Source: a virus (taxonomy: Duplodnaviria > Heunggongvirae > Uroviricota > Caudoviricetes). Taken from it: a stretch of 21,881 nt of DNA. Of this stretch, positions 1,076 through 21,881 are shown one piece after another; position 1 is the first letter of the stretch, and every line of letters begins with the position of its first letter. The position numbers and the translations under genes are program-made. The notes under the pieces are model-generated. The model saw only the letters and a list, made by a program, of their open reading frames with translations, was not told the DNA's origin and ran no database searches. The DNA lies in the IMG/VR virus record IMGVR_UViG_2671180357_000006, positions 1 through 21,881 of that record; one strand, given 5' to 3'.

Positions 1076-3415
1076 TTAATCTTCTAATTCATCTGTCGGT
1101 GATGTCTTCTCGCGCCTGTCATCTATTGCCTGTAACGCAGCAATGATTTCAGCTAATGGCTTCTCCCGGTACATCTCGACGATCTGTGATTTGGTGTATT
1201 TCTTCTCGCCAATTTCCACACGCCCGCTGGCGCTCTTGGGCAGGTATCCTTCCTCCAGCATGTATTCGACCAGAGACTCGACGACGTCCAGCCCGCGAGT
1301 CGGGTCGAAGTAGAATTTCCATGAGCATTTGCCAAACGGAGGCGCGACTTTGTTTTTAATGCACTCGGCGCCAACGTCCTGTCCGATCTTCTCTTTGCCA
1401 TCCTTCATGACGGATGCACCCAGACGGATGCGCACCGACGCGTAGAACTTCGGAGAGTCGCCACCCGGAGACGTAGTCGGATCGCCAAACATCACACCAA
1501 TTTTGGTACGCACCTGGTTCAAGAAGATGATGCACGCGTTGTACTTACGCGCCCAAAGCGCCAGAGTAGGGAAGTTCGCACTTGTCGCGCGCGCCAGCGC
1601 CGTGTTGTCGTTCATGTTCAGCTGATCTTTGTCCTTCGCAGTGCCTTCTGCCATCTTGTCGAACTTCTCAGCCTTCGAGTTCGGAACCATCGACGCCAGA
1701 GAGTCGGCTACGATGCAGATAGGGGCTGTTTCCGGAATAAGCTCTTCGTCGCGCACCAGCTTGAGGATTGTGCCGATCAGCTCTACGGAGTCTTCGAAGG
1801 TATCCGGCTGTTTGTAGACCCACTGACCGTCGTCTTCGTCGGCGTTCAGTCCGTTCGCTACCGCCAGACCAACGTCGAAACTGTTTTCGTGGTCAAGGAA
1901 TACGGCCAGACCATCCTGTTTTTGTGCTGACACCATCGCAGCCGTCGCGAGGAATGTGTTGTGGCTGATAATCCCGTTAGACCAGAAAGAGTGTGTTTCC
2001 GGCATCGCTACGTCGAACGTTGGTGCTTCACCTTCCTCAATAGCCACGACTTCGTCGTAGAACAAGTTAGAGTCAATTACCGCTGCCAGTTGTGCAAACA
2101 GATGCTCGTTAAAACGATTCTTTCTGCCAATGAAGGAGACATAGATTTCTCGCAGTTTGTCTATTCCGACACGATCGCCGCGGCCAATAACGTGATCTAC
2201 CAGAACGTAGTCTTTACGAGAGGTCTTGGTGAGTGACTCGTAGAGTGATTTCACTAAGCCGCTGATGTGCGGAACGTAGCCTAAATAAGTGCGGTCAAAA
2301 CTAATGTCCCGTTTGGTTGCCACTGCTAAACGAGCCGGAGACTCGAACCCAATCGTTGACAGGAAAAGGTCGTAGTTAGAGCCACTGAATGACAGCCGGT
2401 AATATATGTTTTTATAACCTGCGACGTGTTTTTCAGAGATAGTTGACGTAATCCCCAGATTCAGGAGCATGAGGCGAATTTGCTGTAGCAGCAGCCCACT
2501 CGCGCTCACAACCTCAATGCAGCGACCATCATTGACGTGGCATTCCAGCTCAAAGTAGCCGCGAAGGAATGCAATTTGAGCCTCGCTATTGGCGCGACGC
2601 ACACTCAACGGAACCTGCTTGCCAGCAGCTTTCTCATACTCCAGACCATATTCTTTAAAAAGCAGCGAACGCACCTCTTTGCTAAACAGCACATGGTCTT
2701 CCGAGCCGTTATGTTTTCTCGTAACTGGCATCTTGTCTGATACCAGCGAAATGAGGCGGTAGTACTCATCCTTGATGAATGGATCTGTGTTAGAAACATG
2801 CACAGAATTTTCAGAGGCCACGTATCCGTCAGCAATTAAATAGCCCATCAGTTTTGCGATATTGGCATCCAAGTGCTGATCGCCGAATTGATGTGTGCCA
2901 ACCATTGAAGGAATAGTGTCGCCTACACTGATTTTTTCAGCATACCGCCAGACGATATTGCCTAAGTCGTCAACCACACGAATTGGGTGACGGAACGTAG
3001 CCTCGATGTAACCCCCTGATGCCAGCTTAATGCGCTTGAATTTGCGACGGTTGTTCCATGTCAGGTGTGAGGTCTTCTCTATCACGCCATTTTCATTGAT
3101 GAGTCCAACGTTATGCTCTACATCGCGAGTAGTGCATGTTGCTTTGTGCCCCTCAATCTCAAACAGTTCTTTCACTGTTACCATTCCACGCTCCGTCAGC
3201 AGCATGGTGTCTGCGGTAACACATTTCCCCGCGCTTGGTGGCCCGAAGACTTCAACGATACGCCCACATGGAAAACCACCGTCGTAACGTCCGGAAATGG
3301 CTTTGTTCAGTGGAGGGAAACCGGAGTCAATCCAGTGGGAGACCTTCTGAATCTCGTCATTGCTGCCGATTTTCTTTTTCAGCGCCAGTGCCAGTGCGGA
3401 TTTGCCTTTTGCCAT
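1076..3415 (-). CDS. RecA-family recombinase interrupted by an intein (779-aa precursor; exteins total 357 aa)
   Basis: N-extein ends GRIVEVFGPPSAGK and the C-extein starts TFLATAAMV, which rejoin to a Walker A motif GPPSAGKT. The C-extein carries FLNQVRTKIGVMFGDPTTSPGGDSPKFYASVRIRLG, closely matching the bacterial RecA core [36 protein letters not shown]. AGGAG RBS 7 nt upstream of the ATG. Confidence 0.9.
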   Translation of the reverse strand: MAKGKSALALALKKKIGSNDEIQKVSHWIDSGFPPLNKAISGRYDGGFPCGRIVEVFGPPSAGKCVTADTMLLTERGMVTVKELFEIEGHKATCTTRDVEHNVGLINENGVIEKTSHLTWNNRRKFKRIKLASGGYIEATFRHPIRVVDDLGNIVWRYAEKISVGDTIPSMVGTHQFGDQHLDANIAKLMGYLIADGYVASENSVHVSNTDPFIKDEYYRLISLVSDKMPVTRKHNGSEDHVLFSKEVRSLLFKEYGLEYEKAAGKQVPLSVRRANSEAQIAFLRGYFELECHVNDGRCIEVVSASGLLLQQIRLMLLNLGITSTISEKHVAGYKNIYYRLSFSGSNYDLFLSTIGFESPARLAVATKRDISFDRTYLGYVPHISGLVKSLYESLTKTSRKDYVLVDHVIGRGDRVGIDKLREIYVSFIGRKNRFNEHLFAQLAAVIDSNLFYDEVVAIEEGEAPTFDVAMPETHSFWSNGIISHNTFLATAAMVSAQKQDGLAVFLDHENSFDVGLAVANGLNADEDDGQWVYKQPDTFEDSVELIGTILKLVRDEELIPETAPICIVADSLASMVPNSKAEKFDKMAEGTAKDKDQLNMNDNTALARATSANFPTLALWARKYNACIIFLNQVRTKIGVMFGDPTTSPGGDSPKFYASVRIRLGASVMKDGKEKIGQDVGAECIKNKVAPPFGKCSWKFYFDPTRGLDVVESLVEYMLEEGYLPKSASGRVEIGEKKYTKSQIVEMYREKPLAEIIAALQAIDDRREKTSPTDELED
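1958..3223 (-). other. intein (422 aa) with LAGLIDADG homing-endonuclease domain, inserted in the RecA P-loop between K and T of GPPSAGK/T
   Basis: Starts with Cys (CVTADTMLL) and ends SHN, followed by Thr as the +1 extein residue. Two LAGLIDADG-type motifs inside (LMGYLIADGYV and FLRGYFELECHV). Removing it restores a canonical RecA P-loop. Confidence 0.8.
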
Positions 3416-11974: not shown

Positions 11975-14206
11975 TTACCCAAGAATGATACGAGATAGCT
12001 CAGTGACAACTGACGGCCCTAACTCTTCTACGCTGTTTACCAGCGCGTAATTTTTGTAGAAACGTCGTGGCTCGTCGGTCAGAATCCCGATAGCCATCAG
12101 ATCGATGTCGCTCAAGGTCTCAATTTCTTTGGTGACGGTTCGTAAATGCTGATGGAATCCACTACCTGTAGCACATGGCTCCCCATCACTCATAACCAGC
12201 ATGATCTTTTTGTCCTCCATTCGCCCTGCAAACAGGGTAGCCAGTTGCGCGATACTCTCACCATCGACGTTATTGAGCAGGGGGAACGTCTCACATACGC
12301 ATCCCATGCGAGCACGGATCTCTGGAGAGTTTGCTTTCTCATTCCAGTTTTTGATAATGGGCAGCATGAGCGCCTCGAAGCGTGTAAACCCGCGCTTCGA
12401 CCTAGTTTCATAATCTGGGCTACCGAACGTGGTAAAGCCGGTGATGATGTTGGGGACATTGATACGATCTAAAGCATCCGTAATGGTATAGGCACTGGCT
12501 AGGGCCAGTTGAATCTTCACGCCATCCATTGAGCCGGACAAGTCGATGACCTGCTGGACACACGCGTTCACCGCTCTATGGTCTTCCTTCTTGCGGAACA
12601 CTCGGTCGTCGTTCATTGCCAGACGATACAGGCTCGCGCCATGTATCCGCCCACGCCTCTGACCAGGTATAAACTGAACTCGGTTGCGGCTGGCGATGGC
12701 CCGCTCTAGGTCTTTGGCCAGCGTCGAAGAAACGCCTGCAGACAGATGTTTTTCGATTTTCAGTTCAAAGAGTTTTCTGCCTTCTGGCACCATACGGTAG
12801 CGGTCGACTGGTGAGTGCATTGGTATTGCACCGAACGTCTTTCTGGTGCGCTTCACATGCTCTTCGGCTCCATCAATCAACCCGATAAAGTCGTATGATC
12901 GATCGTATGGCCGATAATCAGAAGGTGAGACGCTCATAAGCTCTTTGCTGATGGTGGCCGACAGTGCGTCTTCGGTCATTTCACCGATTCCGTCTTCCAT
13001 CTCGTCGAGCGCCTTTAGCGCCTCCTCCAGAGTCATTTCATCCGGCGCAGGAACAAAGCCAGACTCACTGTCTTTGGGCACTTCCGCACCATCTTTATTT
13101 TTTTTGCCTTCGACGTCTTCTTCTTCAGTTTCCCCACGATCAGTATCGGAGTCCTCACCGCCATCACCATCGGTGTCAGAGTCACTTGATTTCATGCCGA
13201 TAGCATCGGATTCTGGGGTGTCTCCTGACTCTTCGTGGCCTGCTTCTGTATATTTACTTTCTGTATCACTAATATCTTTAACGTGTGTAGGTAAGTCCTT
13301 ATCTAACGAATCAGGCAAATCGGAATCCCCAGAATCTTCCTCTTCTGATGCATCATCTTCTCGTTCTTCCTTGTCATCGCCTTCGCCTTTGGCAGGCTTA
13401 GATGCAGAGTCACCATGAGACGGTTCGTCACCTGATTCTGGCGTTTCCTCGGACTCGTCTTTGCTCTCCGACGGCTTTCTGGAAGATGATTTAAGTTCTG
13501 GTAATTTGCCCTCTGGCTTGTCTTTCATATCCTGCATGATTTGGGCTATAGCAGCAGCGACCTTCACGCAATCCTCAGTGTTCGACATATTGCGAACGGC
13601 CACGTCTATACCATGCTCCTTTAGTAAGGCTACCGGCCTCTCGATAAGGCGCCAGTGTTCTTCCATAAAATCGATGAAGGGGCTTTGTCCATCCCAGGCG
13701 CGGACGACCGGGCAAAGGAAGAATTTCAAAAACAATTCACGCTGGTCTCCGTGACAGGCTAAAACCGCTTCTGGTACTTTATTCCTGAAGTATTTGTCGA
13801 TAACCAGACTCTGTGTTGCAAGTAAATTACGCCGGGTTCCGTTAAAGACCTGCCCCATTCTGCGTTCAATAAAAACGTCTTCCAGCGCATTCCAAAGCCC
13901 CGTAGACGGAGCCTTTCCTCTTTCGTGCATCTGCATTGCGACTTTCGGTTCAGTAAAGAGAATATGGGCCACCTCATGGTCGAGAAAACCACGCACTGCG
14001 TTCATGAGGGTTGGCGACGCGTCGTCCGGTATAGATGGGATGTTTACCAGCACTGGTTCGCCGCGCCGGTTATAGCGGACATATGCTTCATTGCCTCGTT
14101 CTGCAACAGGTATCTGTTTACCTGAAAGCATCGCTACAACTCGTTTTACACAGTCGCGAAAATCCTGCACCTCTTTCAGTACAGCTTTGGTGGTTTTTTT
14201 GGACAT
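11975..14206 (-). CDS. CobT-like von Willebrand factor A (vWA) protein with HExxH motif and long acidic linker (about 744 aa from the RBS-supported start)
   Basis: C-terminal vWA domain with MIDAS DLSGSM and SDGEP; central ~145-aa Asp/Glu/Ser-rich low-complexity region; N-terminal LDHEVAHILF (HExxH). Start reassigned to the ATG at 14204-14206 preceded by AAGGGA; the track's ATG at 14275 lies inside an inverted repeat. Confidence 0.8.
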   Translation of the reverse strand: MSKKTTKAVLKEVQDFRDCVKRVVAMLSGKQIPVAERGNEAYVRYNRRGEPVLVNIPSIPDDASPTLMNAVRGFLDHEVAHILFTEPKVAMQMHERGKAPSTGLWNALEDVFIERRMGQVFNGTRRNLLATQSLVIDKYFRNKVPEAVLACHGDQRELFLKFFLCPVVRAWDGQSPFIDFMEEHWRLIERPVALLKEHGIDVAVRNMSNTEDCVKVAAAIAQIMQDMKDKPEGKLPELKSSSRKPSESKDESEETPESGDEPSHGDSASKPAKGEGDDKEEREDDASEEEDSGDSDLPDSLDKDLPTHVKDISDTESKYTEAGHEESGDTPESDAIGMKSSDSDTDGDGGEDSDTDRGETEEEDVEGKKNKDGAEVPKDSESGFVPAPDEMTLEEALKALDEMEDGIGEMTEDALSATISKELMSVSPSDYRPYDRSYDFIGLIDGAEEHVKRTRKTFGAIPMHSPVDRYRMVPEGRKLFELKIEKHLSAGVSSTLAKDLERAIASRNRVQFIPGQRRGRIHGASLYRLAMNDDRVFRKKEDHRAVNACVQQVIDLSGSMDGVKIQLALASAYTITDALDRINVPNIITGFTTFGSPDYETRSKRGFTRFEALMLPIIKNWNEKANSPEIRARMGCVCETFPLLNNVDGESIAQLATLFAGRMEDKKIMLVMSDGEPCATGSGFHQHLRTVTKEIETLSDIDLMAIGILTDEPRRFYKNYALVNSVEELGPSVVTELSRIILG

Positions 14207-14259
14207 TAGAATTCCCTTGTTGTTAAAACAATTTGTTTTCTGATGTGCGTAATTTATCA

Positions 14260-14292
14260 CTGTACGAACAGGCATCTAATCTGTTCGTACAG
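14260..14292. promoter_or_regulatory. perfect 12-bp inverted repeat (candidate operator) in the promoter region of the CobT/CobS/DnaE gene block
   Basis: CTGTACGAACAG-N9-CTGTTCGTACAG, 54-86 bp upstream of the CobT-like start, overlapping a plausible -35/-10 on the minus strand. Confidence 0.4.
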
Positions 14293-14310
14293 GCGCTAGA
14301 GAGGATGGGA

Positions 14311-14318
14311 GGGGGGGG
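14311..14318. repeat. G8 homopolymer tract (C8 on the coding strand of the flanking operon)
   Basis: Directly visible run of eight G between the stop of the 70-aa gene (14319) and the inverted repeat. Confidence 0.9.
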
Positions 14319-14531
14319 TTAAATTGTGCGGACGGCTACTGAACCGCAGCCGGTATTGATGAGAGTGAAGCACTTGCCCTTTAGCTCAAAGATGTATGCG
14401 GTTGCGTCTTTCATGTCAAGTAACAAAGACTTTGTTGGCAGTTCAGTGAGTATGGCTGCTGCCCCATCATCGTCAATTGAAATCGTATGTCCGACCTCAA
14501 GGGCGATCAAATTAGAAGTTATTTTTTTCAT
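14319..14531 (-). CDS. hypothetical small protein (70 aa)
   Basis: First gene transcribed leftward from the divergent AT-rich control region; GGA-type RBS; the antisense ORF 14326..14655 is less plausible. Confidence 0.4.
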   Translation of the reverse strand: MKKITSNLIALEVGHTISIDDDGAAAILTELPTKSLLLDMKDATAYIFELKGKCFTLINTGCGSVAVRTI

Positions 14532-14787
14532 TTCATATCATCCAACTGAACACGTAAATACCTTGCAATACTACTACCTATTGTATCAATACGGAATACT
14601 TATGTATCAAATACAACTTAGTTTTAAGTTCTTAAATGAGTTATTTTTTAGATAGTTGTCTATTAGTGAAGCCTTTTGCGGTCAGTAAACCTATGTAAAA
14701 AAATAGATAAGTCTTTACAACACTAACCTTTGATGTAATATCAGTAAGCACTTACCAAATAAAATCAAAACACGCAGGTTGATAATT

Positions 14788-15177
14788 ATGGCTACCAACG
14801 AAACAAAAGAAGCTAAAGTAAGTCGCTACGCTGCTTACATTGACGCTTTAATCGCGATTTCTCCGAAAAGCCAGGCGACCATCGCGAAAGAAGCAGGCTA
14901 TAAAAACCCTAACAATCTTTCACTTATCAAGAGCGGCAAAATCCCGCTTCCGATCGACAAGGTCAGAGCGTTGGCTAAAGCATTGGATGCCGATTCGGTC
15001 CGATTGATGCTAATGGTGCTGGAAGAGCGTCATCCAGAGCTGTTAGCGTTTTTTCGCGACGAAGGCACAGCCCCTCTGACTAAAGATGAAAAACTAGTTC
15101 TGGAAGCCTTCCGTCGACGTTTCGGTGACCAACGTGGTGCGTCGGAGCGGGTTGTTGAGGCAATCAAGTCGCTATGA
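14788..15177 (+). CDS. putative HTH transcriptional regulator (130 aa from ATG; the track's TTG start at 14779 is less likely)
   Basis: SQATIAKEAGYKNPNNLSLIKSGKIPLPIDKVRALAKAL looks like a helix-turn-helix; AGG 9 nt upstream of the ATG; transcribed divergently from the 70-aa gene across a 256-bp AT-rich region; stop overlaps the integrase stop. Confidence 0.6.
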   Translation: MATNETKEAKVSRYAAYIDALIAISPKSQATIAKEAGYKNPNNLSLIKSGKIPLPIDKVRALAKALDADSVRLMLMVLEERHPELLAFFRDEGTAPLTKDEKLVLEAFRRRFGDQRGASERVVEAIKSL

Positions 15178-16275
15178 GAAATTTACACGGATTAGCTCAG
15201 TAGCGAGTCGATCTCCCTTGAACTTATGATCTATCTCCTCTAAATCCTGTTTCTCTACGATTGATGCGATGTACGCCGAAAAACTGTTTAAGGCGTCTCG
15301 CATCTCGTCTATATAATCGTGTCGATCGTATACTCGATCTATCCCCTCAAGACTGTGGTTCATAATTTTGCGGGATACCTCCTGACTTATGCCTAACGCG
15401 GGGAAGTAACTACGCGCAGTACGACGCAAATCTCGGGGAGTAAATGGCTCAAGCTCCATCAACTCTGGACGTTCTAAAATCCTTCTCAACGCCTGTGATA
15501 TGGCCACCTTAGACATTGGCACATCCTCACCCTGTTTCTTGTTTGAAGGAACAAGCCACTGGCTGCCTTTTCCGTATTTGATCAGCTCCTCAACACATTT
15601 GCGCATTAGCGGGCTTAATGGTAACGAGTGCTGGCGAGCCGATTTATTCCTCGTTCCTTGATTCCATAAATTATATTCGAGGTTGAATTCTGATCTTTTA
15701 GCTCGGAGCACTTCATCTGGTCGTCTGGCCGCTACAAGACATAATCTGGCCGCCCACTTTGTACCCTCACATACGTTGAAGTAGTCCCATACATTCCAAA
15801 AGACCCAGACCTCTGCGTCGGTCAGTTTGCGCTCGCGAGGCGTGGGCTTCGCGCCACCGGCTACTCTGTTAAGCGACATATCGTTCAATGGGGATGTATC
15901 AATTAAGCCCTGAAATGCACACCAACTGAGAAACTGCTTCATCAGCGAGAACACACGTCTGCCCTGGACGATCTTGCCCTCAAGTATTAATGGGTTCACC
16001 AGCTGGTTGACTAAAACCCTACTAATGTCACTTACTTTTACTTCACAGATATGCGGCATTACATGTATCAAAATACAATGAACAGCTATTTCAGGTCGAC
16101 GTCTCGTTATCAGCAAAGATAAGCGAGTGAATAACATGAATGCGGAAGAAAACGACATGTCACCGTCGAAATTGGTGGTCGACACTGCTGACAAGCCGGA
16201 AGCGCGTTCGAGATACTCGATGGCTTCTCTAGAGGTGTTTTCTGCTGCGCGTGCTTTATCAAAAGTGTTTTTCAT
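15172..16275 (-). CDS. int: tyrosine recombinase / integrase, P4-type catalytic domain; N-terminal arm-binding domain not recognisable
   Basis: Catalytic-domain motifs LTDAEVWVFWN, RLCLVAARRPDEVLRAKRSEFNL, TPRDLRRTARSY, IMNHSLEGIDRVYDRHDY (R..H-x-x-R..Y). The first ~70 residues do not resemble the usual P4-type N-terminus. Confidence 0.85.
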   Translation of the reverse strand: MKNTFDKARAAENTSREAIEYLERASGLSAVSTTNFDGDMSFSSAFMLFTRLSLLITRRRPEIAVHCILIHVMPHICEVKVSDISRVLVNQLVNPLILEGKIVQGRRVFSLMKQFLSWCAFQGLIDTSPLNDMSLNRVAGGAKPTPRERKLTDAEVWVFWNVWDYFNVCEGTKWAARLCLVAARRPDEVLRAKRSEFNLEYNLWNQGTRNKSARQHSLPLSPLMRKCVEELIKYGKGSQWLVPSNKKQGEDVPMSKVAISQALRRILERPELMELEPFTPRDLRRTARSYFPALGISQEVSRKIMNHSLEGIDRVYDRHDYIDEMRDALNSFSAYIASIVEKQDLEEIDHKFKGDRLATELIRVNFS

Positions 16276-16303
16276 AGTCCACTCACTGAGTGAAGCCTGT
16301 TTT

Positions 16304-16323
16304 TACTGTATTTATAAACAGTA
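16304..16323. promoter_or_regulatory. LexA (SOS) box-like palindrome over the putative integrase promoter
   Basis: TACTGTATTTATAAACAGTA matches the gammaproteobacterial consensus TACTGTATATATATACAGTA at 18 of 20 positions (CTGT-N8-ACAG). It lies 29 bp upstream of the integrase ATG, abutting a -35 TTGATC, 16-bp spacer, -10 TAATAT on the minus strand. Confidence 0.55.
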
Positions 16324-16372
16324 TATTAGGCCTAAGTTTTGTATGATCAACAGTAAAATAGACTGTTTTTGA

Positions 16373-16407
16373 AAATGATTCCATACCTTACAAGTATGGA
16401 ATCATTT
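16373..16407. repeat. perfect 14-bp inverted repeat / hairpin in the integrase-cassette intergenic region
   Basis: AAATGATTCCATAC-N7-GTATGGAATCATTT. No clean U-tract on either strand, so terminator, recombinase-binding site and att core are all possible. Confidence 0.4.
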
Positions 16408-16574
16408 ATATAGCTTACGTAAATTCTGAATAAATTATGTAGACAAACCATCTTAAACGCTAAATAGTAAAAAGCGCCTAATAACGCCAACTTTGGAATG
16501 CCATCTGAGCCAGATTGATGAGAATGATTTGTTAGAAGAAAAAGAATGATGAAGAAGATGACGATCGCTAAAGT

Positions 16575-16991
16575 TCAGCTAGAATGGAAACCTTCTGCGA
16601 CTTCAGCGAAGTAGCTGAGCAACCTAGTATCTCTTGCTGGCATACGATCGTGAGCTGGAGTGACTAGCCCCATCAGCAAAAAACGCCCGCTATCCCACAT
16701 GTGCTCGGTATAAACGAGATAGTGGTTTGAGGTTCGGTTGTAGTTCTCTTGCCTTGCGTTCCAGGTAAGCTGGAAATGCAAATTGACGTGAATATGCTGG
16801 ACATTAGCATCAACGGCGAACGGCGGGAAGTCAAATGGTGCATCTCGTCCAAGAAGATTAGATGGTGCGCCAGTTGATTTGTAAGTAATGAACTCGGATT
16901 TGAGCTGACTTTCTAGGTCAGGGTAAACGACAAAAGTGGGCTGAAAAAAATCATCCCACGTAACTTGACTGTATTCAGCCGTTAATGCCAT
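16575..16991 (-). CDS. hypothetical protein (138 aa), second gene of a two-gene cassette
   Basis: ORF with ordinary composition; start overlaps the stop of the upstream 182-aa gene by 10 bp (translational coupling). No recognisable motif. Confidence 0.5.
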   Translation of the reverse strand: MALTAEYSQVTWDDFFQPTFVVYPDLESQLKSEFITYKSTGAPSNLLGRDAPFDFPPFAVDANVQHIHVNLHFQLTWNARQENYNRTSNHYLVYTEHMWDSGRFLLMGLVTPAHDRMPARDTRLLSYFAEVAEGFHSS

Positions 16992-17530
16992 TTAGCCGCA
17001 GCCTTGTTGCCAGTCTCTAATAGATGGTTCATGGCTAAAAGGTTGACACCAGAGTCACGCACTACAGAAGTGCGTGTAATCTGATCAATCAGATTGAGAT
17101 AGTTTTTGGTCGCAATACTGACCATTTTAATAGCCTTAAAAAACGCAAACTCAACAGTGTTTTTTTCGTAAGACATGATGACGTCTTTTTCAGGTAACAT
17201 CAAAACAAAAGATTCTGCGATACCGGCTACATGAATAGTTTGATTCTTAATTTCTTCCGCTACTTTGATAGCAGCAAAGAAGTCAGTGTCAGCATAATGA
17301 GCAAGTTCAGCGCGGCTTGAACGCAGTTCTTTAGCCAATTCATTGAGAGCAGCTGTAAGATCACTGATGTCGGTTTTGTTGACTCTAGCGCCCATCTCAT
17401 AAACCCGTTCGACAATCGTAGGCTGACACGCAACCGCTTTGGGTTGCGGCTGGATACTGGCAAGAACCAGTGCCACTGCTGCCTGCAAATGCTGGATTTT
17501 AAATTTCACGATAGACTCCATAATCGTCAT
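16982..17530 (-). CDS. hypothetical protein (182 aa), first gene of a two-gene cassette
   Basis: ORF downstream of the tRNA terminator, co-oriented with the 138-aa gene. No recognisable motif. Confidence 0.5.
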   Translation of the reverse strand: MTIMESIVKFKIQHLQAAVALVLASIQPQPKAVACQPTIVERVYEMGARVNKTDISDLTAALNELAKELRSSRAELAHYADTDFFAAIKVAEEIKNQTIHVAGIAESFVLMLPEKDVIMSYEKNTVEFAFFKAIKMVSIATKNYLNLIDQITRTSVVRDSGVNLLAMNHLLETGNKAAAKWH

Positions 17531-17609
17531 TTCTCGACGAAGCGTAGCATTCTACTACTGAACTTAACTATAAGCTAAAAAAAGTTGGTTGCATATGCGA
17601 CTTGATAGC

Positions 17610-17631
17610 AAAAAGGGGCCGAAGCCCCTTT
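17610..17631 (-). terminator. rho-independent terminator downstream of the tRNA
   Basis: Minus-strand reading gives GGGGC-TTCG-GCCCC followed by TTTTT (GC stem with a UUCG tetraloop). Confidence 0.65.
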
Positions 17632-17705
17632 GGATTTTGCGCTGAAAAAAGTGTTGCTACGATGCTTAGAAGCAATGGTTAAAAAACGTCTGCCGTGTCT
17701 ATCAC

Positions 17706-17780
17706 AGCGCTGAACGGTCTGGCGACATTTGCGGAGTCTTTCGTTCGGACGGTGATGGCGAATCCAAACCGTTCAGCGCT
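17706..17780. repeat. 13-bp perfect inverted repeat flanking a 49-bp spacer, directly 3' of the tRNA
   Basis: AGCGCTGAACGGT (17706-17718) and ACCGTTCAGCGCT (17768-17780); the tRNA CCA end is at 17785-17787. Confidence 0.5.
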
Positions 17781-17784
17781 ATGT

Positions 17785-17859
17785 TGGCGATGGTGGGTGG
17801 ACTCGAACCACCGACCAGTTGATTAACAGTCAACCGCTCTACCACTGAGCTACACCATC
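17785..17859 (-). tRNA. tRNA-Asn (anticodon GTT)
   Basis: Minus-strand sequence GATGGTG-TA-GCTC-AGTGGTA-GAGC-G-GTTGA-CTGTTAA-TCAAC-TGGTC-GGTGG-TTCGAGT-CCACC-CACCATC-G-CCA folds as a canonical cloverleaf with perfect 7-bp acceptor, 5-bp anticodon and 5-bp T stems, a TTCGAGT T-loop and encoded CCA. Confidence 0.88.
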
Positions 17860-17952
17860 ATTTTCGCGGCGGTACTAGCTTATGGACAACCAGGCAGCCA
17901 GAAACTTTCCCGTAACTTGCACTTTACGTTAGTGCCAGACGAGGTATGTGGC

Positions 17953-17968
17953 TCGCTCATATGAGCGA
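17953..17968. repeat. 16-bp perfect palindrome TCGCTCATATGAGCGA
   Basis: Self-complementary 16-mer centred on CATATG, about 95 bp upstream of the tRNA 5' end and 39 bp outside the transposon IR. Confidence 0.5.
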
Positions 17969-18006
17969 AGATCTCGAATCTTTCTCGGTGGTTGATTGCC
18001 GTTAGA

Positions 18007-18044
18007 GGGGGAACCGCAGAATTCGGAAAAAATCGTACGCTAAG
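18007..18044 (+). repeat. 38-bp terminal inverted repeat of the Tn1721-like transposon (outer end at 18007)
   Basis: GGGGGAACCGCAGAATTCGGAAAAAATCGTACGCTAAG: Tn21-family IR signature including the EcoRI site known from Tn1721 ends. Flanking 5 bp outside are TTAGA. Confidence 0.85.
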
Positions 18045-18144
18045 CTAACGGTGTTCTCGTGACAGCTCTTTGACTAGGCTTTCTAAGGCCATTCTGATAG
18101 CCCTGACTTCCTGAAAAGCCATGGCTAAAATTTGTGCGGCTAAA

Positions 18145-18176
18145 AGGGATAACCGATGGTAAAGTAAGTTATCCCT
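18145..18176 (-). terminator. hairpin 3' of mcp; weak candidate terminator
   Basis: 9-bp stem AGGGATAAC / GTTATCCCT with a 14-nt loop, about 20 bp after the mcp stop; only TTTA follows on the minus strand. Confidence 0.35.
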
Positions 18177-18195
18177 GTCGAGATACTGAAAAGCG

Positions 18196-19773
18196 TTATC
18201 CTCGTTTTTCCCAAAACTGTTTTGCCAGTTCGCTCAGAGCGCTAGTTAACTGAGCGACAGATTTCGCACTTTGCAAATTATTCTGCCCGGTCTGTACATT
18301 GGTATCAGCAGCATCGCGTATATTGATAATACTGCGGTTTATGTCTTCACTTACTGCTCCCTGCTGCTCGACCGCAGTCGCTATTTGCGCGTTCATGTCG
18401 GTAATTTCGTTAACGCGTTGGCCAATTCCATCAAGAGCTGTAGCTGCTTCCTCTGCGTGAGCTACACTCGTGTGCGCTTGCCGACTACTTTGCTCCATGA
18501 CTGTAACAGCGGATTGCGCTCGCTCTTGTAGAGCGCTGATCATGCTTTGAATATCCGTTGTCGATTGCTGTGTGCGAGCAGCAAGACTGCGAACCTCATC
18601 GGCGACAACAGCAAAACCACGCCCCTGCTCACCAGCACGCGCGGCCTCAATTGCTGCGTTGAGTGCCAACAAATTCGTTTGCTCGGCGATCCCTCGTATA
18701 ACGTCAAGAACTTTTGATATCTCGTTACTTTGACCTTCAAGCTCATGAATAACCTGAGTGGCTTGCCTAATTTCACCTTCAAGGGCAGTGATTGACTGGC
18801 TTGTGTGGGCTACCAGACGCTGGCCAGATGCCGTCTCAGTGTCTGCTCTTCCGGCCGCATCTGCAGCATGCTGTGCATTGCTCGCAACCTCTTGAATGCT
18901 TGCCACCATTTGGTTTACTGCCGTTGCTATTTGATCTGTCTCTGCCTGCTGCTCAACTGTAAGTACATTGCTTGACTCAATATCCTTTAGTAGGCCTCGG
19001 GTGTGTTCGCTAAGCCGATTTGATGCATCACCTATGCGACCTACTATGGCGCCTGTTTCAGCTTGCATCATTCGTAAAGCAAACTCTATTTGGCCAAACT
19101 CATCGGTGCGCCCAGTGTAGAGGGATTGACTTAATGGGTTATTGGAAATATTCCTGGCTCTTTCAACCAGTCTTCCAAGAGGAGAGAGAATAGCCAAAAC
19201 ACTAACAGAGCTTAAGCTTCCTGACATTAAAGTGGCTAACAATAAGCTGCTTATTGATGTATCAGTAAGCATGCCGGCAGCCATTGCGCTTGATATAATA
19301 CTACCCCATATGAGCAAGAGTATTTTCACGGAAAAGCTAGCAGCCAATTTCGGCCTCGCGGCCTTCCCGCTTCTCAATTGAGCATATAATTTTTCCGCAG
19401 CCAAAACCTGCTCAGGTTCAGGCTTGGTCCTTACAGACTGGTATTCAACAATCGAACCATTCTTAGCTATTGGCGTTACATAAGCACTTACCCAATAGTG
19501 GTCGCCATTTTTACAGCGATTTTTTACTAGCCCCATCCATGAGCGGCCAGATTTTAATGTACTCCACATATGCTCAAATGCAGCAGGCGGCATATCTGGG
19601 TGTCTTACGATGTTGTGAGGCTGGCCTAATAGTTCTTCCTCAGTGAAACCACTGATTTTAATGAAGTCAGGATTAACGTATGTGATATGGCTTTGAGGGG
19701 AGGTAGTCGAAAGAATATTGGCATCTTTTGGGAGTTCTAAGTTTCGACCCGTCACTGGTAAATTCTGGCGCAT
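18196..19773 (-). CDS. mcp: methyl-accepting chemotaxis protein with N-terminal PAS domain (Aer-like); transposon passenger gene (525 aa)
   Basis: N-terminus [75 protein letters not shown] parallels the E. coli Aer PAS region; the MCP signalling domain has [32 protein letters not shown]; hydrophobic segment in the middle; GAGG RBS upstream. Confidence 0.9.
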
Positions 19774-19924
19774 AAGAACCTCAAGGGTTGGCTGTTTTAT
19801 TTTATTGTTTTCGGCATTAAGCCCAATTTCTTGAGCGTTACGATAAAGCTAGCATGGAAACGATAGGTGCAAGCAAGTTAAGGGTTGCATCGCGCATGTC
19901 AATCTAGGCTATACCCTAACTTGA

Positions 19925-20075
19925 TGTCAGGCAGGGCCGCGCCGCTTCGTCAGAATAGAGTCTGCTTTCCCATTTTTTGACACATGCCCGCGAAGGTTAT
20001 AGATTTCAGCCTGACAGAAATGGGCTTTGAGGCACAACGGAACAGAAAGTGCACTTAAGCCGCCTTCAACCAAGG
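19925..20075. promoter_or_regulatory. res (resolution) site and tnpR promoter region of the transposon
   Basis: Clustered imperfect TGTCA/TGACA-type half-site pairs (TGTCAGGCAGG...CGTCAG, CGTCAGAATAGAGTCTG...TTGACA, TGACACATGCCC...CAGCCTGACA) between mcp and tnpR, as expected for Tn21-family res subsites; followed by an AAGGAG RBS before the tnpR GTG. Confidence 0.5.
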
Positions 20076-20082
20076 AGACATC

Positions 20083-20643
20083 GTGCAGGGGCACCGCATC
20101 GGCTACGTCCGGGTCAGCAGCTTTGACCAGAACCCGGAACGCCAGCTGGAACAAACCCAGGTGAGCAAGGTGTTCACCGACAAGGCATCGGGCAAGGACA
20201 CCCAGCGCCCCCAGCTCGAAGCGCTGCTGAGCTTCGTCCGCGAAGGCGATACAGTGGTGGTGCGCAGCATGGATCGGCTGGCCCGCAACCTCGATGACCT
20301 GCGTCGCTTGGTACAGAAGCTGACTCAGCGCGGCGTGCGCATCGAGTTCCTGAAGGAGGGCCTGGTGTTCACTGGCGAGGACTCGCCGATGGCCAACCTG
20401 ATGCTGTCGGTGATGGGGGCCTTCGCTGAGTTCGAGCGCGCCCTGATCCGCGAGCGGCAGCGTGAGGGCATCGCCTTGGCCAAGCAGCGTGGCGCGTACC
20501 GGGGCCGCAAGAAAGCCCTGTCCGATGAGCAGGCTGCTACCCTGCGGCAGCGAGCGACGGCCGGCGAGCCCAAGGCGCAGCTTGCCCGCGAGTTCAACAT
20601 CAGCCGGGAAACCCTCTACCAGTACCTCCGCACGGACGACTGA
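20083..20643 (+). CDS. tnpR: serine resolvase TnpR (Tn21/Tn1721 subgroup), GTG start
   Basis: MQGHRIGYVRVSSFDQNPERQLE... with the catalytic serine region, and C-terminal HTH ISRETLYQYLRTD; near-identical by recollection to Tn1721/Tn501-type resolvase. Confidence 0.95.
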   Translation: MQGHRIGYVRVSSFDQNPERQLEQTQVSKVFTDKASGKDTQRPQLEALLSFVREGDTVVVRSMDRLARNLDDLRRLVQKLTQRGVRIEFLKEGLVFTGEDSPMANLMLSVMGAFAEFERALIRERQREGIALAKQRGAYRGRKKALSDEQAATLRQRATAGEPKAQLAREFNISRETLYQYLRTDD

Positions 20644-20646
20644 CAC

Positions 20647-21881
20647 ATGCCGCGTCGCTTGATCCTCTCGGCCACGGAGCGGGACACCCTGCTTGCGCTG
20701 CCGGAAAGCCAGGATGACCTGATCCGCTACTACACCTTCAACGACTCCGACCTGTCGCTGATCCGCCAGCGACGCGGCGACGCCAACCGCCTCGGCTTCG
20801 CCGTGCAGCTCTGCCTGCTGCGCTACCCCGGTTACGCGCTGGGAACCGACAGCGAGCTGCCCGAGCCGGTCATCCTGTGGGTGGCGAAGCAAGTCCAGGC
20901 CGAGCCGGCGAGCTGGGCAAAGTACGGCGAGCGCGACGTGACCCGTCGCGAGCATGCCCAGGAACTGCGCACCTACCTGCAACTGGCCCCGTTCGGCCTG
21001 TCCGACTTCCGCGCCCTGGTGCGCGAGCTAACCGAGCTGGCCCAGCAGACCGACAAAGGCTTGCTGCTGGCCGGTCAGGCCCTGGAGAGCCTACGGCAGA
21101 AACGACGCATCCTGCCGGCGCTGAGCGTGATTGACCGGGCCTGCTCGGAAGCCATTGCGCGAGCCAATCGGCGGGTCTACCGCGCCCTGGTCGAACCACT
21201 CACGGACTCGCATCGGGCCAAGCTGGACGAGCTGTTGAAGCTCAAGGCCGGCAGCAGCATCACCTGGTTGACCTGGCTGCGCCAGGCACCGCTGAAACCC
21301 AACTCTCGGCACATGCTGGAACACATCGAGCGGCTGAAGACATTTCAGTTGGTGGACTTGCCCGAAGGCCTGGGCCGGCACATCCACCAGAACCGCCTGC
21401 TCAAGCTGGCCCGCGAGGGTGGGCAGATGACGCCCAAAGACCTCGGTAAGTTCGAGCCGCAGCGCCGCTACGCGACCCTGGCCGCCGTGGTGCTGGAGAG
21501 CACCGCGACCGTGATCGATGAGCTGGTCGATCTGCATGACCGCATCCTGGTCAAGCTGTTCAGCGGCGCGAAGCACAAGCATCAGCAGCAGTTCCAGAAG
21601 CAGGGCAAGGCGATCAACGACAAGGTGCGCCTGTACTCCAGGATCGGCCAGGCGCTGCTGGAAGCGAAGGAAAGCGGCAGCGACCCCTATGCCGCCATCG
21701 AGGCGGTGATTCCCTGGGACGAGTTCACCGAGAGCGTCAGCGAGGCCGAGCTGCTGGCCCGGCCGGAAGGCTTCGACCACCTGCACCTGGTCGGCGAGAA
21801 CTTCGCCACCCTGCGCCGTTACACGCCGGCCTTGCTGGAGGTGCTGGAACTGCGCGCCGCGCCGGCCGCGCAAGGCGTGCT
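20647..21881 (+). CDS. tnpA: Tn3-family transposase TnpA, 5' partial (first ~411 codons; runs off the window end)
   Basis: ATG at 20647, 3 nt after the tnpR stop; translation [44 protein letters not shown]...[12 protein letters not shown]...[10 protein letters not shown]... matches the Tn21-family TnpA N-terminus. Absent from the ORF track because no stop is reached. Confidence 0.92.

Follow-up and report, generated by a model that had tools for sequence, protein, structure and literature searches.

The DNA analyzed here has a length of 21,881 nt (positions 1 to 21,881 of the IMG/VR virus record IMGVR_UViG_2671180357_000006, assigned to the Caudoviricetes) and is referred to as the window. 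It carries two overlapping open reading frames (ORFs), ORF-A and ORF-B, and we consider it likely that these constitute a type II-like toxin-antitoxin (TA) module, with ORF-A as the cognate antitoxin of ORF-B. ORF-B belongs to the known YafO toxin family, while ORF-A appears to represent a novel candidate antitoxin family which is uncharacterized and apparently phage-associated. An earlier note on this DNA had listed two co-oriented, overlapping ORFs of 182 and 138 codons, had found no motif in either protein, and had guessed at TA or defense cargo of a tRNA-linked island. The ORFs proved to be real; both are encoded on the minus strand and overlap by 10 bp. The guess of TA or defense-type cargo gained support, as ORF-B is a YafO-family toxin and the pair behaves as a portable, co-inherited module, but the assumption of a tRNA-linked island did not.

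The claimed absence of a motif does not apply to ORF-B, which matches Pfam family PF13957 (YafO_toxin) with 70.8 bits (gathering cut-off 25 bits), residues 36-136 of its 138 residues being aligned to profile positions 2-100 of 101. ORF-B also matches phrog_1651 (80 bits) and shows 31% sequence identity to YafO from Escherichia coli K-12 (E 1e-11). The identical protein is encoded on sister plasmids, and RefSeq already annotates it as "type II toxin-antitoxin system YafO family toxin." With NCBIfam model NF007377 (YafO), ORF-B scores 52.1 bits, which is below the equivalog cut-off of 153, so that the equivalog level is not reached. An alignment of 28 diverse family members (canonical and phage-type, ORF-B included) revealed 12 invariant residues, and all 12 are retained in ORF-B (L30, F34, K38, G48, D50, H68, L92, Y94, P112, H114, A132, and F135). 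YafO proteins which are partnered by A-type proteins have a distinctive N-terminus of ~30 residues (MALTAEYS..FF.PTF..YP.LE) that is absent from the canonical, YafN-partnered YafO proteins.

The AlphaFold2 (AF2) model of ORF-B has a predicted local distance difference test score (pLDDT) of 89.9 and a predicted template modeling score (pTM) of 0.86. When this model was compared to the PDB using Foldseek, the matches were almost exclusively RelE-superfamily toxins, with YoeB, YafQ, RelE, and HigB2 at the top, at modest scores (best E 0.056, none below 0.001; probability at most 0.84; template modeling score at most 0.67 on target length). A profile of ORF-B did not match any PDB sequence, and a sequence search did not retrieve a YafO structure from the PDB. 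The RelE-like fold neighbors agree with the assignment of YafO to the RelE superfamily, which had been based on secondary-structure prediction (PMC2814082). ORF-B is clearly a member of the YafO family, and its predicted fold is RelE-like. In strain K-12, YafO acts as a ribosome-dependent endonuclease: it binds to the 50S subunit, and its mRNA cleavage sites are located 11-13 nt 3' of the start codon (PMC7781912, summarizing Zhang et al., 2009). By homology, ORF-B is expected to be toxic.

The junction between the two genes has the sequence AAATGGCATTAA. The ATG of ORF-B is embedded in the final Lys-Trp codons of ORF-A, and the stop codon of ORF-A follows 7 nt downstream. This overlap of the ORF-B start with the ORF-A end points to translational coupling. 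The start of ORF-A is most likely the GTG at position 17509, resulting in a protein of 175 residues, because a GGAG is found 6 nt upstream, the homologs of ORF-A have a GTG, TTG, or ATG start codon at exactly this position, and the RefSeq coding sequence has 528 bp. The ratio of nonsynonymous to synonymous differences (pN/pS) is 0.29 for ORF-A and 0.19 for ORF-B (8 loci, pS ~0.7), and the pair recurs in ~90 fetched loci. Based on these data, we regard ORF-A and ORF-B as genuine genes under purifying selection rather than chance ORFs.

In the loci that were sampled with ORF-A as starting point, a YafO-family gene is located directly downstream. Such loci are found in Pseudescherichia, Leclercia, Erwinia, Pantoea, Kluyvera, Enterobacter, and in several phage-plasmids, and the linkage persists down to 22-30% sequence identity of ORF-A. 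To counter the bias inherent in this type of sampling, 60 viral and metagenomic loci were also sampled with ORF-B as starting point. An A-type ORF was encountered upstream of every intact B gene with readable upstream sequence, except for locus L066 (see below). Almost all of these 60 loci have an identical 10-bp overlap, down to 29% sequence identity of ORF-A; the most divergent loci (L012, L034, and L095) have a short gap instead of the overlap, and their B gene has its own Shine-Dalgarno sequence. The pairwise distances of the A and the B proteins correlate with r = 0.94 (Mantel test 0/5000; 21 distinct pairs), and we therefore conclude that partners have not been swapped. ORF-A diverges ~1.2-fold faster than ORF-B. 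Charge complementarity between A and B did not follow a consistent pattern.

Copies of the pair which reside in unrelated neighborhoods share a homology span of ~1,013 bp (window positions ~17597 to ~16585), which comprises A and B together with ~88 nt of DNA upstream of them. At least five unrelated neighborhoods were found: exbBD (Pseudescherichia), ilvBN and a major facilitator superfamily transporter (Leclercia), a methyl-accepting chemotaxis protein (Erwinia), efflux pumps, and phage-plasmids. As judged from these sequence comparisons, A-B behaves as a portable, promoter-bearing, co-inherited two-gene module, a hallmark of TA cassettes. The generic features of type II systems are found in the pair: two small, adjacent, co-oriented genes form one operon, one of them is homologous to a validated toxin, and the two are co-inherited and mobile.

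The upstream DNA which travels with the pair probably functions as its promoter and leader (see Table 1 for the conserved elements), even though a consensus scan did not call a minus-strand promoter at positions 17510..17597. A LexA box was sought in this region but was not found (best match with 3/8 mismatches). The GC-rich hairpin between this region and the tRNA gene is predicted to insulate the cassette from tRNA transcription. An antitoxin-first gene order, translational coupling, and a promoter of its own are typical of type II modules, and this combination counts in favor of a type II reading of A-B.

For ORF-A, the absence of a known motif was confirmed, as neither a family nor a solved fold was matched. 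There is no significant match in Pfam, NCBIfam, PADLOC, or PHROGs, and no relative in the PDB, neither by sequence nor by fold. ORF-A could not be aligned to YafN at E<=100, and a Pfam match to Phd/YefM was not obtained either. Its AF2 model is all-helical (pLDDT 79). The protein consists of a basic N-terminus with 10-14 hydrophobic residues, a helical bundle, and a conserved C-terminal helix (A[LM]xxLxxxG[NT]xAA). This helix is the most conserved stretch throughout the superfamily, and it is under constraint at the protein level because it is conserved even where it does not overlap with ORF-B. Only 24 relatives of ORF-A were detected among 1.84 billion representative proteins. The family phrog_8416 links the ORF-A relative P0045, HK639_17, and R656_gp093. 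ORF-A is probably a new kind of antitoxin, with its family linked to phrog_8416.

Some other assignments in connection with ORF-A were considered and rejected. A weak match to RHH_1 (E 0.07) was seen in only 1 of 14 diverse relatives, in a region modeled by AF2 as one continuous helix. The protein gp0104 from pJN2-26 (205 aa, encoded upstream of a distant YafO) scores only 5 bits and was not counted as a family member. A spanin-like arrangement, with an N-terminal hydrophobic segment, a helical domain, and an overlapping second gene, was dropped, ORF-B being a YafO homolog devoid of a lipoprotein signal.

When the module decays, clean lesions take out B or both genes, but never A alone (only clean deletions in genomes and plasmids were counted). 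B is deleted with A retained in two Pseudescherichia genomes, while both genes carry frameshifts in Erwinia mediterraneensis. Of the 29 complete E. coli plasmids with ORF-A, ~12 have a 436-bp deletion (window positions 16588-17023), as does L030. The deletion is bounded by 4-nt ATGG microhomologies and removes ORF-B except for its last 4 codons, together with the last 13 codons of ORF-A; the truncated ORF-A is still annotated as a 164-aa hypothetical protein. This asymmetry fits antitoxin/toxin logic. Some metagenomic loci were discounted as decay cases: L066, where A is broken and B is intact, is an indel-ridden metagenome assembly, and the broken B genes of L076, L085, L087, and L096 are likely assembly noise. 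These five loci show 6-17 indels per kb, one of them at a homopolymer run. L076 and L087 are two A-B copies located on the same metagenome contig (VOFL01000099.1, 243 kb). B appears to be truncated in each of them, which may reflect real decay or assembly noise.

The pair is located on a phage-plasmid. Window positions 14000-18006 show 99.7% sequence identity to many circular IncFIB plasmids of 106-115 kb from E. coli and E. fergusonii. The left part of the window codes for an intein-containing RecA-like protein, a 5'-3' exonuclease, a gp32-like single-stranded DNA-binding protein, DnaE, and CobS/CobT-like proteins; a sister plasmid also carries a ligase, a primase, a DnaB-like helicase, and a phd/doc pair. 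We assign the window to an SSU5/pHCM2-type phage-plasmid of E. coli (for this type see PMC7969092); the virion genes are located outside of the window. Klebsiella phage records of 110 kb show the same synteny. The gene order A-B-integrase-...-CobT-CobS is kept in L009, L029, the Klebsiella loci L031-L033, and phage pJN2-26, and the integrase is the syntenic neighbor of the pair in all SSU5-type relatives. In diverged relatives, the pair is located downstream of genes of anti-defense type (Acb2/Tad1-hairpin, Sequestin), and we therefore take this to be a conflict or accessory region. The genes encountered upstream of A-B in the Klebsiella SSU5-like loci L031-L033 (positions 1744-3166) and in L009 (positions 1063-1753) code for a Colicin_M-domain protein, an Acb2/Tad1-hairpin protein, Sequestin, glutaredoxin, and PhoH.

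Table 1. Features of the A-B module and of its surroundings, with coordinates referring to the window.
Feature	Coordinates	Strand	Comment
ORF-A	16982..17509	-	175 aa from GTG 17509; longest ORF extends to ATG 17530 (182 aa); uncharacterized all-helical partner, candidate antitoxin
ORF-B	16575..16991	-	138 aa; YafO-family toxin, predicted ribosome-dependent mRNA endonuclease
ORF-A/ORF-B overlap	16982..16991	-	10 bp, ATGGCATTAA; ORF-B start codon within the last codons of ORF-A
Putative promoter/leader travelling with the pair	17510..17597	-	homology to copies in unrelated contexts begins at ~17597; T-tract; invariant TATAGT (17572-17567); TA[G/A/C]AAT (17554-17549); GGAG (17519-17516); hexamers conserved in 10 loci
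Terminator-like hairpin and T-run	16473..16488	-	~90 nt downstream of ORF-B; consensus scan only
GC-rich hairpin and T-run	17612..17631	-	between tRNA and ORF-A promoter; perfect 8-bp inverted repeat, 4-nt loop, then TTTTT
tRNA-Asn(GTT)	17785..17859	-	ARAGORN; same tRNA at the same place on sister plasmids
Tyrosine recombinase/integrase ORF	15172..16275	-	Pfam Phage_integrase, 36 bits

A module of this kind would operate as follows. A and B would be cotranscribed from the promoter of the module, with A being made first. Ribosomes which terminate on A would reinitiate at the overlapping ATG of B, so that synthesis of B is tied to that of A. ORF-B would, by homology, bind to the ribosome, cut mRNA just downstream of start codons, and thus arrest translation. 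ORF-A would neutralize ORF-B, presumably by direct binding via its helical bundle and the conserved C-terminal helix, and would keep B silent as long as the element is present and expressed. Upon loss of the plasmid-prophage, or upon host shut-off by an infecting phage, A would be depleted and B would stop the cell. The outcome would be post-segregational killing and/or abortive infection, and the module probably serves in plasmid-prophage maintenance and/or abortive infection.

Several observations weigh against a TA module of this type. The PADLOC-DB 2.0 models do not match ORF-A or ORF-B at E<=1. ORF-A is larger than its presumed toxin, and Pfam scans did not reveal a recognizable DNA-binding domain (no helix-turn-helix [HTH], ribbon-helix-helix, AbrB, or Phd), so that classical autoregulation is unsupported. 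There is no convincing operator palindrome in the promoter, only short ones (11 nt, 82% complementary, and 9 nt, 89% complementary); the TAGC...GCTA arms found there do not show symmetric substitutions in Erwinia. ORF-B is acidic (isoelectric point 5.3), which is unusual for a ribosome-binding RNase. The module is dispensable, as it has been deleted in many sister plasmids, and the decay asymmetry is based on few independent events, several of the "broken" metagenomic copies probably being assembly noise. Finally, a basic and hydrophobic N-terminus resembling a Sec signal is present in every ORF-A lineage, and true export would be incompatible with a cytosolic antitoxin.

Three alternatives were considered. 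The pair might not be a TA system at all. In that case, B would be an RNA-binding protein of YafO type that has been domesticated or is nontoxic, and A would be an unrelated phage protein, either structural or regulatory, that happens to share the operon. Consistent with this are the NCBIfam score of ORF-B below the equivalog cut-off (52 vs. 153 bits), its acidic character, the absence of an antitoxin-like domain from ORF-A, and the deletion of the cassette from many sister plasmids without obvious consequence. However, strict co-inheritance and coupling are maintained across deep divergence, the residues invariant across canonical YafO toxins are all retained in ORF-B, there is no clean case of A being lost with B intact, and the stand-alone, promoter-bearing module of 1 kb enters bacterial chromosomes, where a phage function is not needed. 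We thus consider a non-TA function quite unlikely. Even less probable, and already contradicted by the data, is the view that the pair is cargo of an island for which the adjacent integrase used a chromosomal tRNA-Asn gene as integration site. The order of tRNA, cargo, and integrase in one orientation does resemble tRNA-linked islands, and the GC content is lower (0.40-0.45) over 15.9-17.7 kb. The whole region, however, is collinear with circular phage-plasmids at the 99.7% sequence identity reported above. Among 5,426 complete E. coli genomes, the tRNA-Asn matches only plasmids, and the only chromosomal matches are CRISPR spacers. A direct repeat of the tRNA 3' end, as expected for an att-type site, was sought in the window and not found. 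A-B-integrase synteny is kept in relatives which lack a nearby tRNA: Klebsiella relatives do not have one near the pair, and in a diverged relative the tRNA genes form an Asn-Tyr-Thr-Ser array at a distance of 3 kb. Where A-B copies reside on chromosomes, both a tRNA and an integrase are missing from their surroundings. The region therefore is not the island that the earlier note had envisaged; conserved housekeeping genes at this tRNA locus, which that note had named as evidence against its proposal, were not encountered either. From these comparisons, the tRNA-Asn is a gene of the phage-plasmid itself rather than an integration target, and the integrase is more plausibly a phage-plasmid recombinase, acting for example in dimer resolution, a role discussed for such recombinases in general terms (PMC7969092).

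The third alternative concerns the N-terminus of ORF-A, which might direct the protein to the Sec pathway or the inner membrane, so that it would not be a simple cytosolic antitoxin. The pair could then be a sensor-effector system (e.g., for superinfection exclusion or envelope-triggered abortive infection), or lability of A could be brought about by export rather than by proteolysis. Throughout the A superfamily, all lineages have retained a K/R-rich start and, after it, 10-14 hydrophobic residues, fewer than is usual for a transmembrane helix; motifs of the small-x-small type are often found behind this run (ALA|G, AGA|H, AGA|A, LAS|I). The pair of HK639 and that of a Pseudomonas phage are located at moron positions, which often harbor exclusion genes acting at the membrane. 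On the Kyte-Doolittle scale, the best 11-residue window reaches 1.8-2.7, and the best 19-residue window 0.9-1.6, at or below the usual threshold of ~1.6 for a membrane-spanning helix. Against export, the N-terminus is the most constrained part of ORF-A in the close family (column identity 0.92; pN/pS 0.16 vs. 0.29 for the whole protein, with ample synonymous change), which is the opposite of what is typical for signal peptides. It is modeled by AF2 as a helix (pLDDT 70-80), and ORF-B is devoid of an export signal while its homolog acts on ribosomes. Possible roles of the segment include those of a helix that is buried or located at an interface, of a degron, and of a true targeting signal; the last of these, if it applies, would make this a mechanistically unusual system. 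Overall, targeting of ORF-A to the Sec pathway or membrane appears unlikely to us. With equal reserve, we mention the far-reaching possibility that ORF-A founds a phage-associated antitoxin superfamily (together with phrog_8416/phrog_22162) whose N-terminus couples neutralization of a YafO-type RNase to the Sec pathway or inner membrane; the cassette would then serve temperate phages and phage-plasmids as a switch for abortive infection or addiction that is linked to the envelope, rather than being a classical, protease-controlled type II system.

A few additional features of the window and of its relatives were observed. The DNA directly 3' of the tRNA-Asn gene (positions 17695-17780, minus strand) contains an inverted repeat with arms of 13 bp (AGCGCTGAACGGT ... 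ACCGTTCAGCGCT) and a loop of ~50 nt. This repeat overlaps a terminator-like site (17692-17708) and precedes the GC-rich hairpin at 17612-17631. A 132-aa ORF on the plus strand (14779-15177), which has weak HTH (XRE-like) matches, converges on the 3' end of the integrase gene with a 6-bp overlap and is kept beside the integrase in relatives; it may code for a recombination directionality factor or a regulator. The 779-aa ORF at positions 1076-3415 (minus strand) codes for a RecA-like recombinase into which an intein is inserted; the intein contains a homing endonuclease of the LAGLIDADG type (Pfam RecA, Intein_splicing, LAGLIDADG_3). In RefSeq, the protein is labeled just as "LAGLIDADG family homing endonuclease."

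Uninterrupted sister plasmids are homologous to the window up to exactly position 18006, ~150 bp from the tRNA. The remainder of the window (18007-21881) is the end of a Tn3-family transposon of the TnAs1/Tn1721 type, with a 38-bp terminal inverted repeat at 18007-18044. It carries a gene for a PAS-domain methyl-accepting chemotaxis protein (18196-19773) as well as resolvase/transposase genes, which are GC-rich (0.65-0.68). According to a 2025 preprint, SSU5-like elements have Tn3-like insertions close to tRNA loci.

In 6 of the 5,426 complete E. coli chromosomes, a type I-E CRISPR array located between queD and queE contains a spacer which is 100% identical to 32 nt of ORF-A (window positions 17214-17248; positions 1201-1232 of L099). 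The protospacer is followed by CTT on the plus strand, corresponding to the canonical AAG protospacer-adjacent motif. The fact that the spacer match is accompanied by a canonical motif indicates that this phage-plasmid family is a natural CRISPR target.

YafO belongs to those RelE-like toxins that are less well understood, and YafN is its only studied partner. Leplae et al. (2011) found YafO with partners that were either of the Phd type or not validated, and they did not find it on plasmids or phages (PMC3141249). Prophage surveys list a YafO gene without an antitoxin (PMC10449497). Our literature search did not reveal a description of the ORF-A partner family or of a YafO module on SSU5-type elements. 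If a constant partner family of 175-190 aa were recognized, it could be the missing antitoxin for the phage-borne YafO proteins which are now reported as orphans. The ORF-A family would add an uncharacterized fold to the antitoxin repertoire and would correct the annotation of hundreds of "hypothetical proteins" on the clinically common SSU5/pHCM2-type phage-plasmids from E. coli, Klebsiella, and Salmonella. It would also offer a simple system to address whether such modules stabilize plasmid-prophages or exclude competing phages. With the toxin side being already known and partner swapping being well established for type II modules, the practical interest is moderate.

Among the characterized systems, YafN-YafO from strain K-12 (operon dinB-yafN-yafO-yafP) has a toxin from the same Pfam family, which shares the motifs FIxYK, GRD, HIH, RTS..LVY, and P.AH with ORF-B. 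The two systems have the antitoxin-first order of two genes in common, and ribosome-dependent mRNA cleavage, as known for K-12 YafO, is expected for ORF-B as well. In contrast to the 97-aa, Phd/YefM-type YafN, the partner in the window is the dissimilar, all-helical ORF-A. There is neither dinB nor yafP nearby, no SOS context, and no LexA box; the ~30 N-terminal residues of ORF-B differ from those of K-12 YafO; and the carrier is a phage-plasmid rather than a chromosome. As A-B differs from the K-12 YafNO type in its partner, its regulation, and its equivalog score, we do not include it in this type. The modules of the RelE superfamily (RelBE, YefM-YoeB, DinJ-YafQ, and HigBA) resemble A-B in operon logic, in coupling, and in the predicted fold of the toxin, which is nearest to YoeB, YafQ, RelE, and HigB2, albeit at modest fold scores. 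They differ in that ORF-B is ~45 residues longer and that ORF-A is unlike RelB, YefM, DinJ, and HigA. An antitoxin which is an all-helical bundle and neutralizes by binding is found in epsilon-zeta/PezAT, where epsilon has no DNA-binding domain. However, ORF-A does not match these antitoxins by sequence or fold, and the toxin is a kinase there and would be an RNase here.

The phage-plasmid P1 carries phd-doc, likewise a two-gene TA system on a phage which lysogenizes as a plasmid, and this module serves post-segregational killing (PMC7969092). Its toxin and antitoxin families are unrelated to those in the window, for which a corresponding function can only be presumed. The same architecture as in the window is found in the uncharacterized pairs gp17-gp18 from HK639 and gp093-gp092 from Pseudomonas phage YMC11/02/R656, in which a hypothetical protein of 180-190 aa precedes a YafO-family gene (phrog_8416/phrog_22162 and YafO). 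HK639_17 matches the ORF-A profile with 31.5 bits, and these pairs have the N-terminal hydrophobic segment and the C-terminal L..LA..GT motif in common with ORF-A. They differ from the pair in the window in showing only 22-35% sequence identity to its proteins, in having genes which are 8 nt apart rather than overlapping, and in occupying moron positions within the tail-gene or immunity region of integrating siphoviruses.

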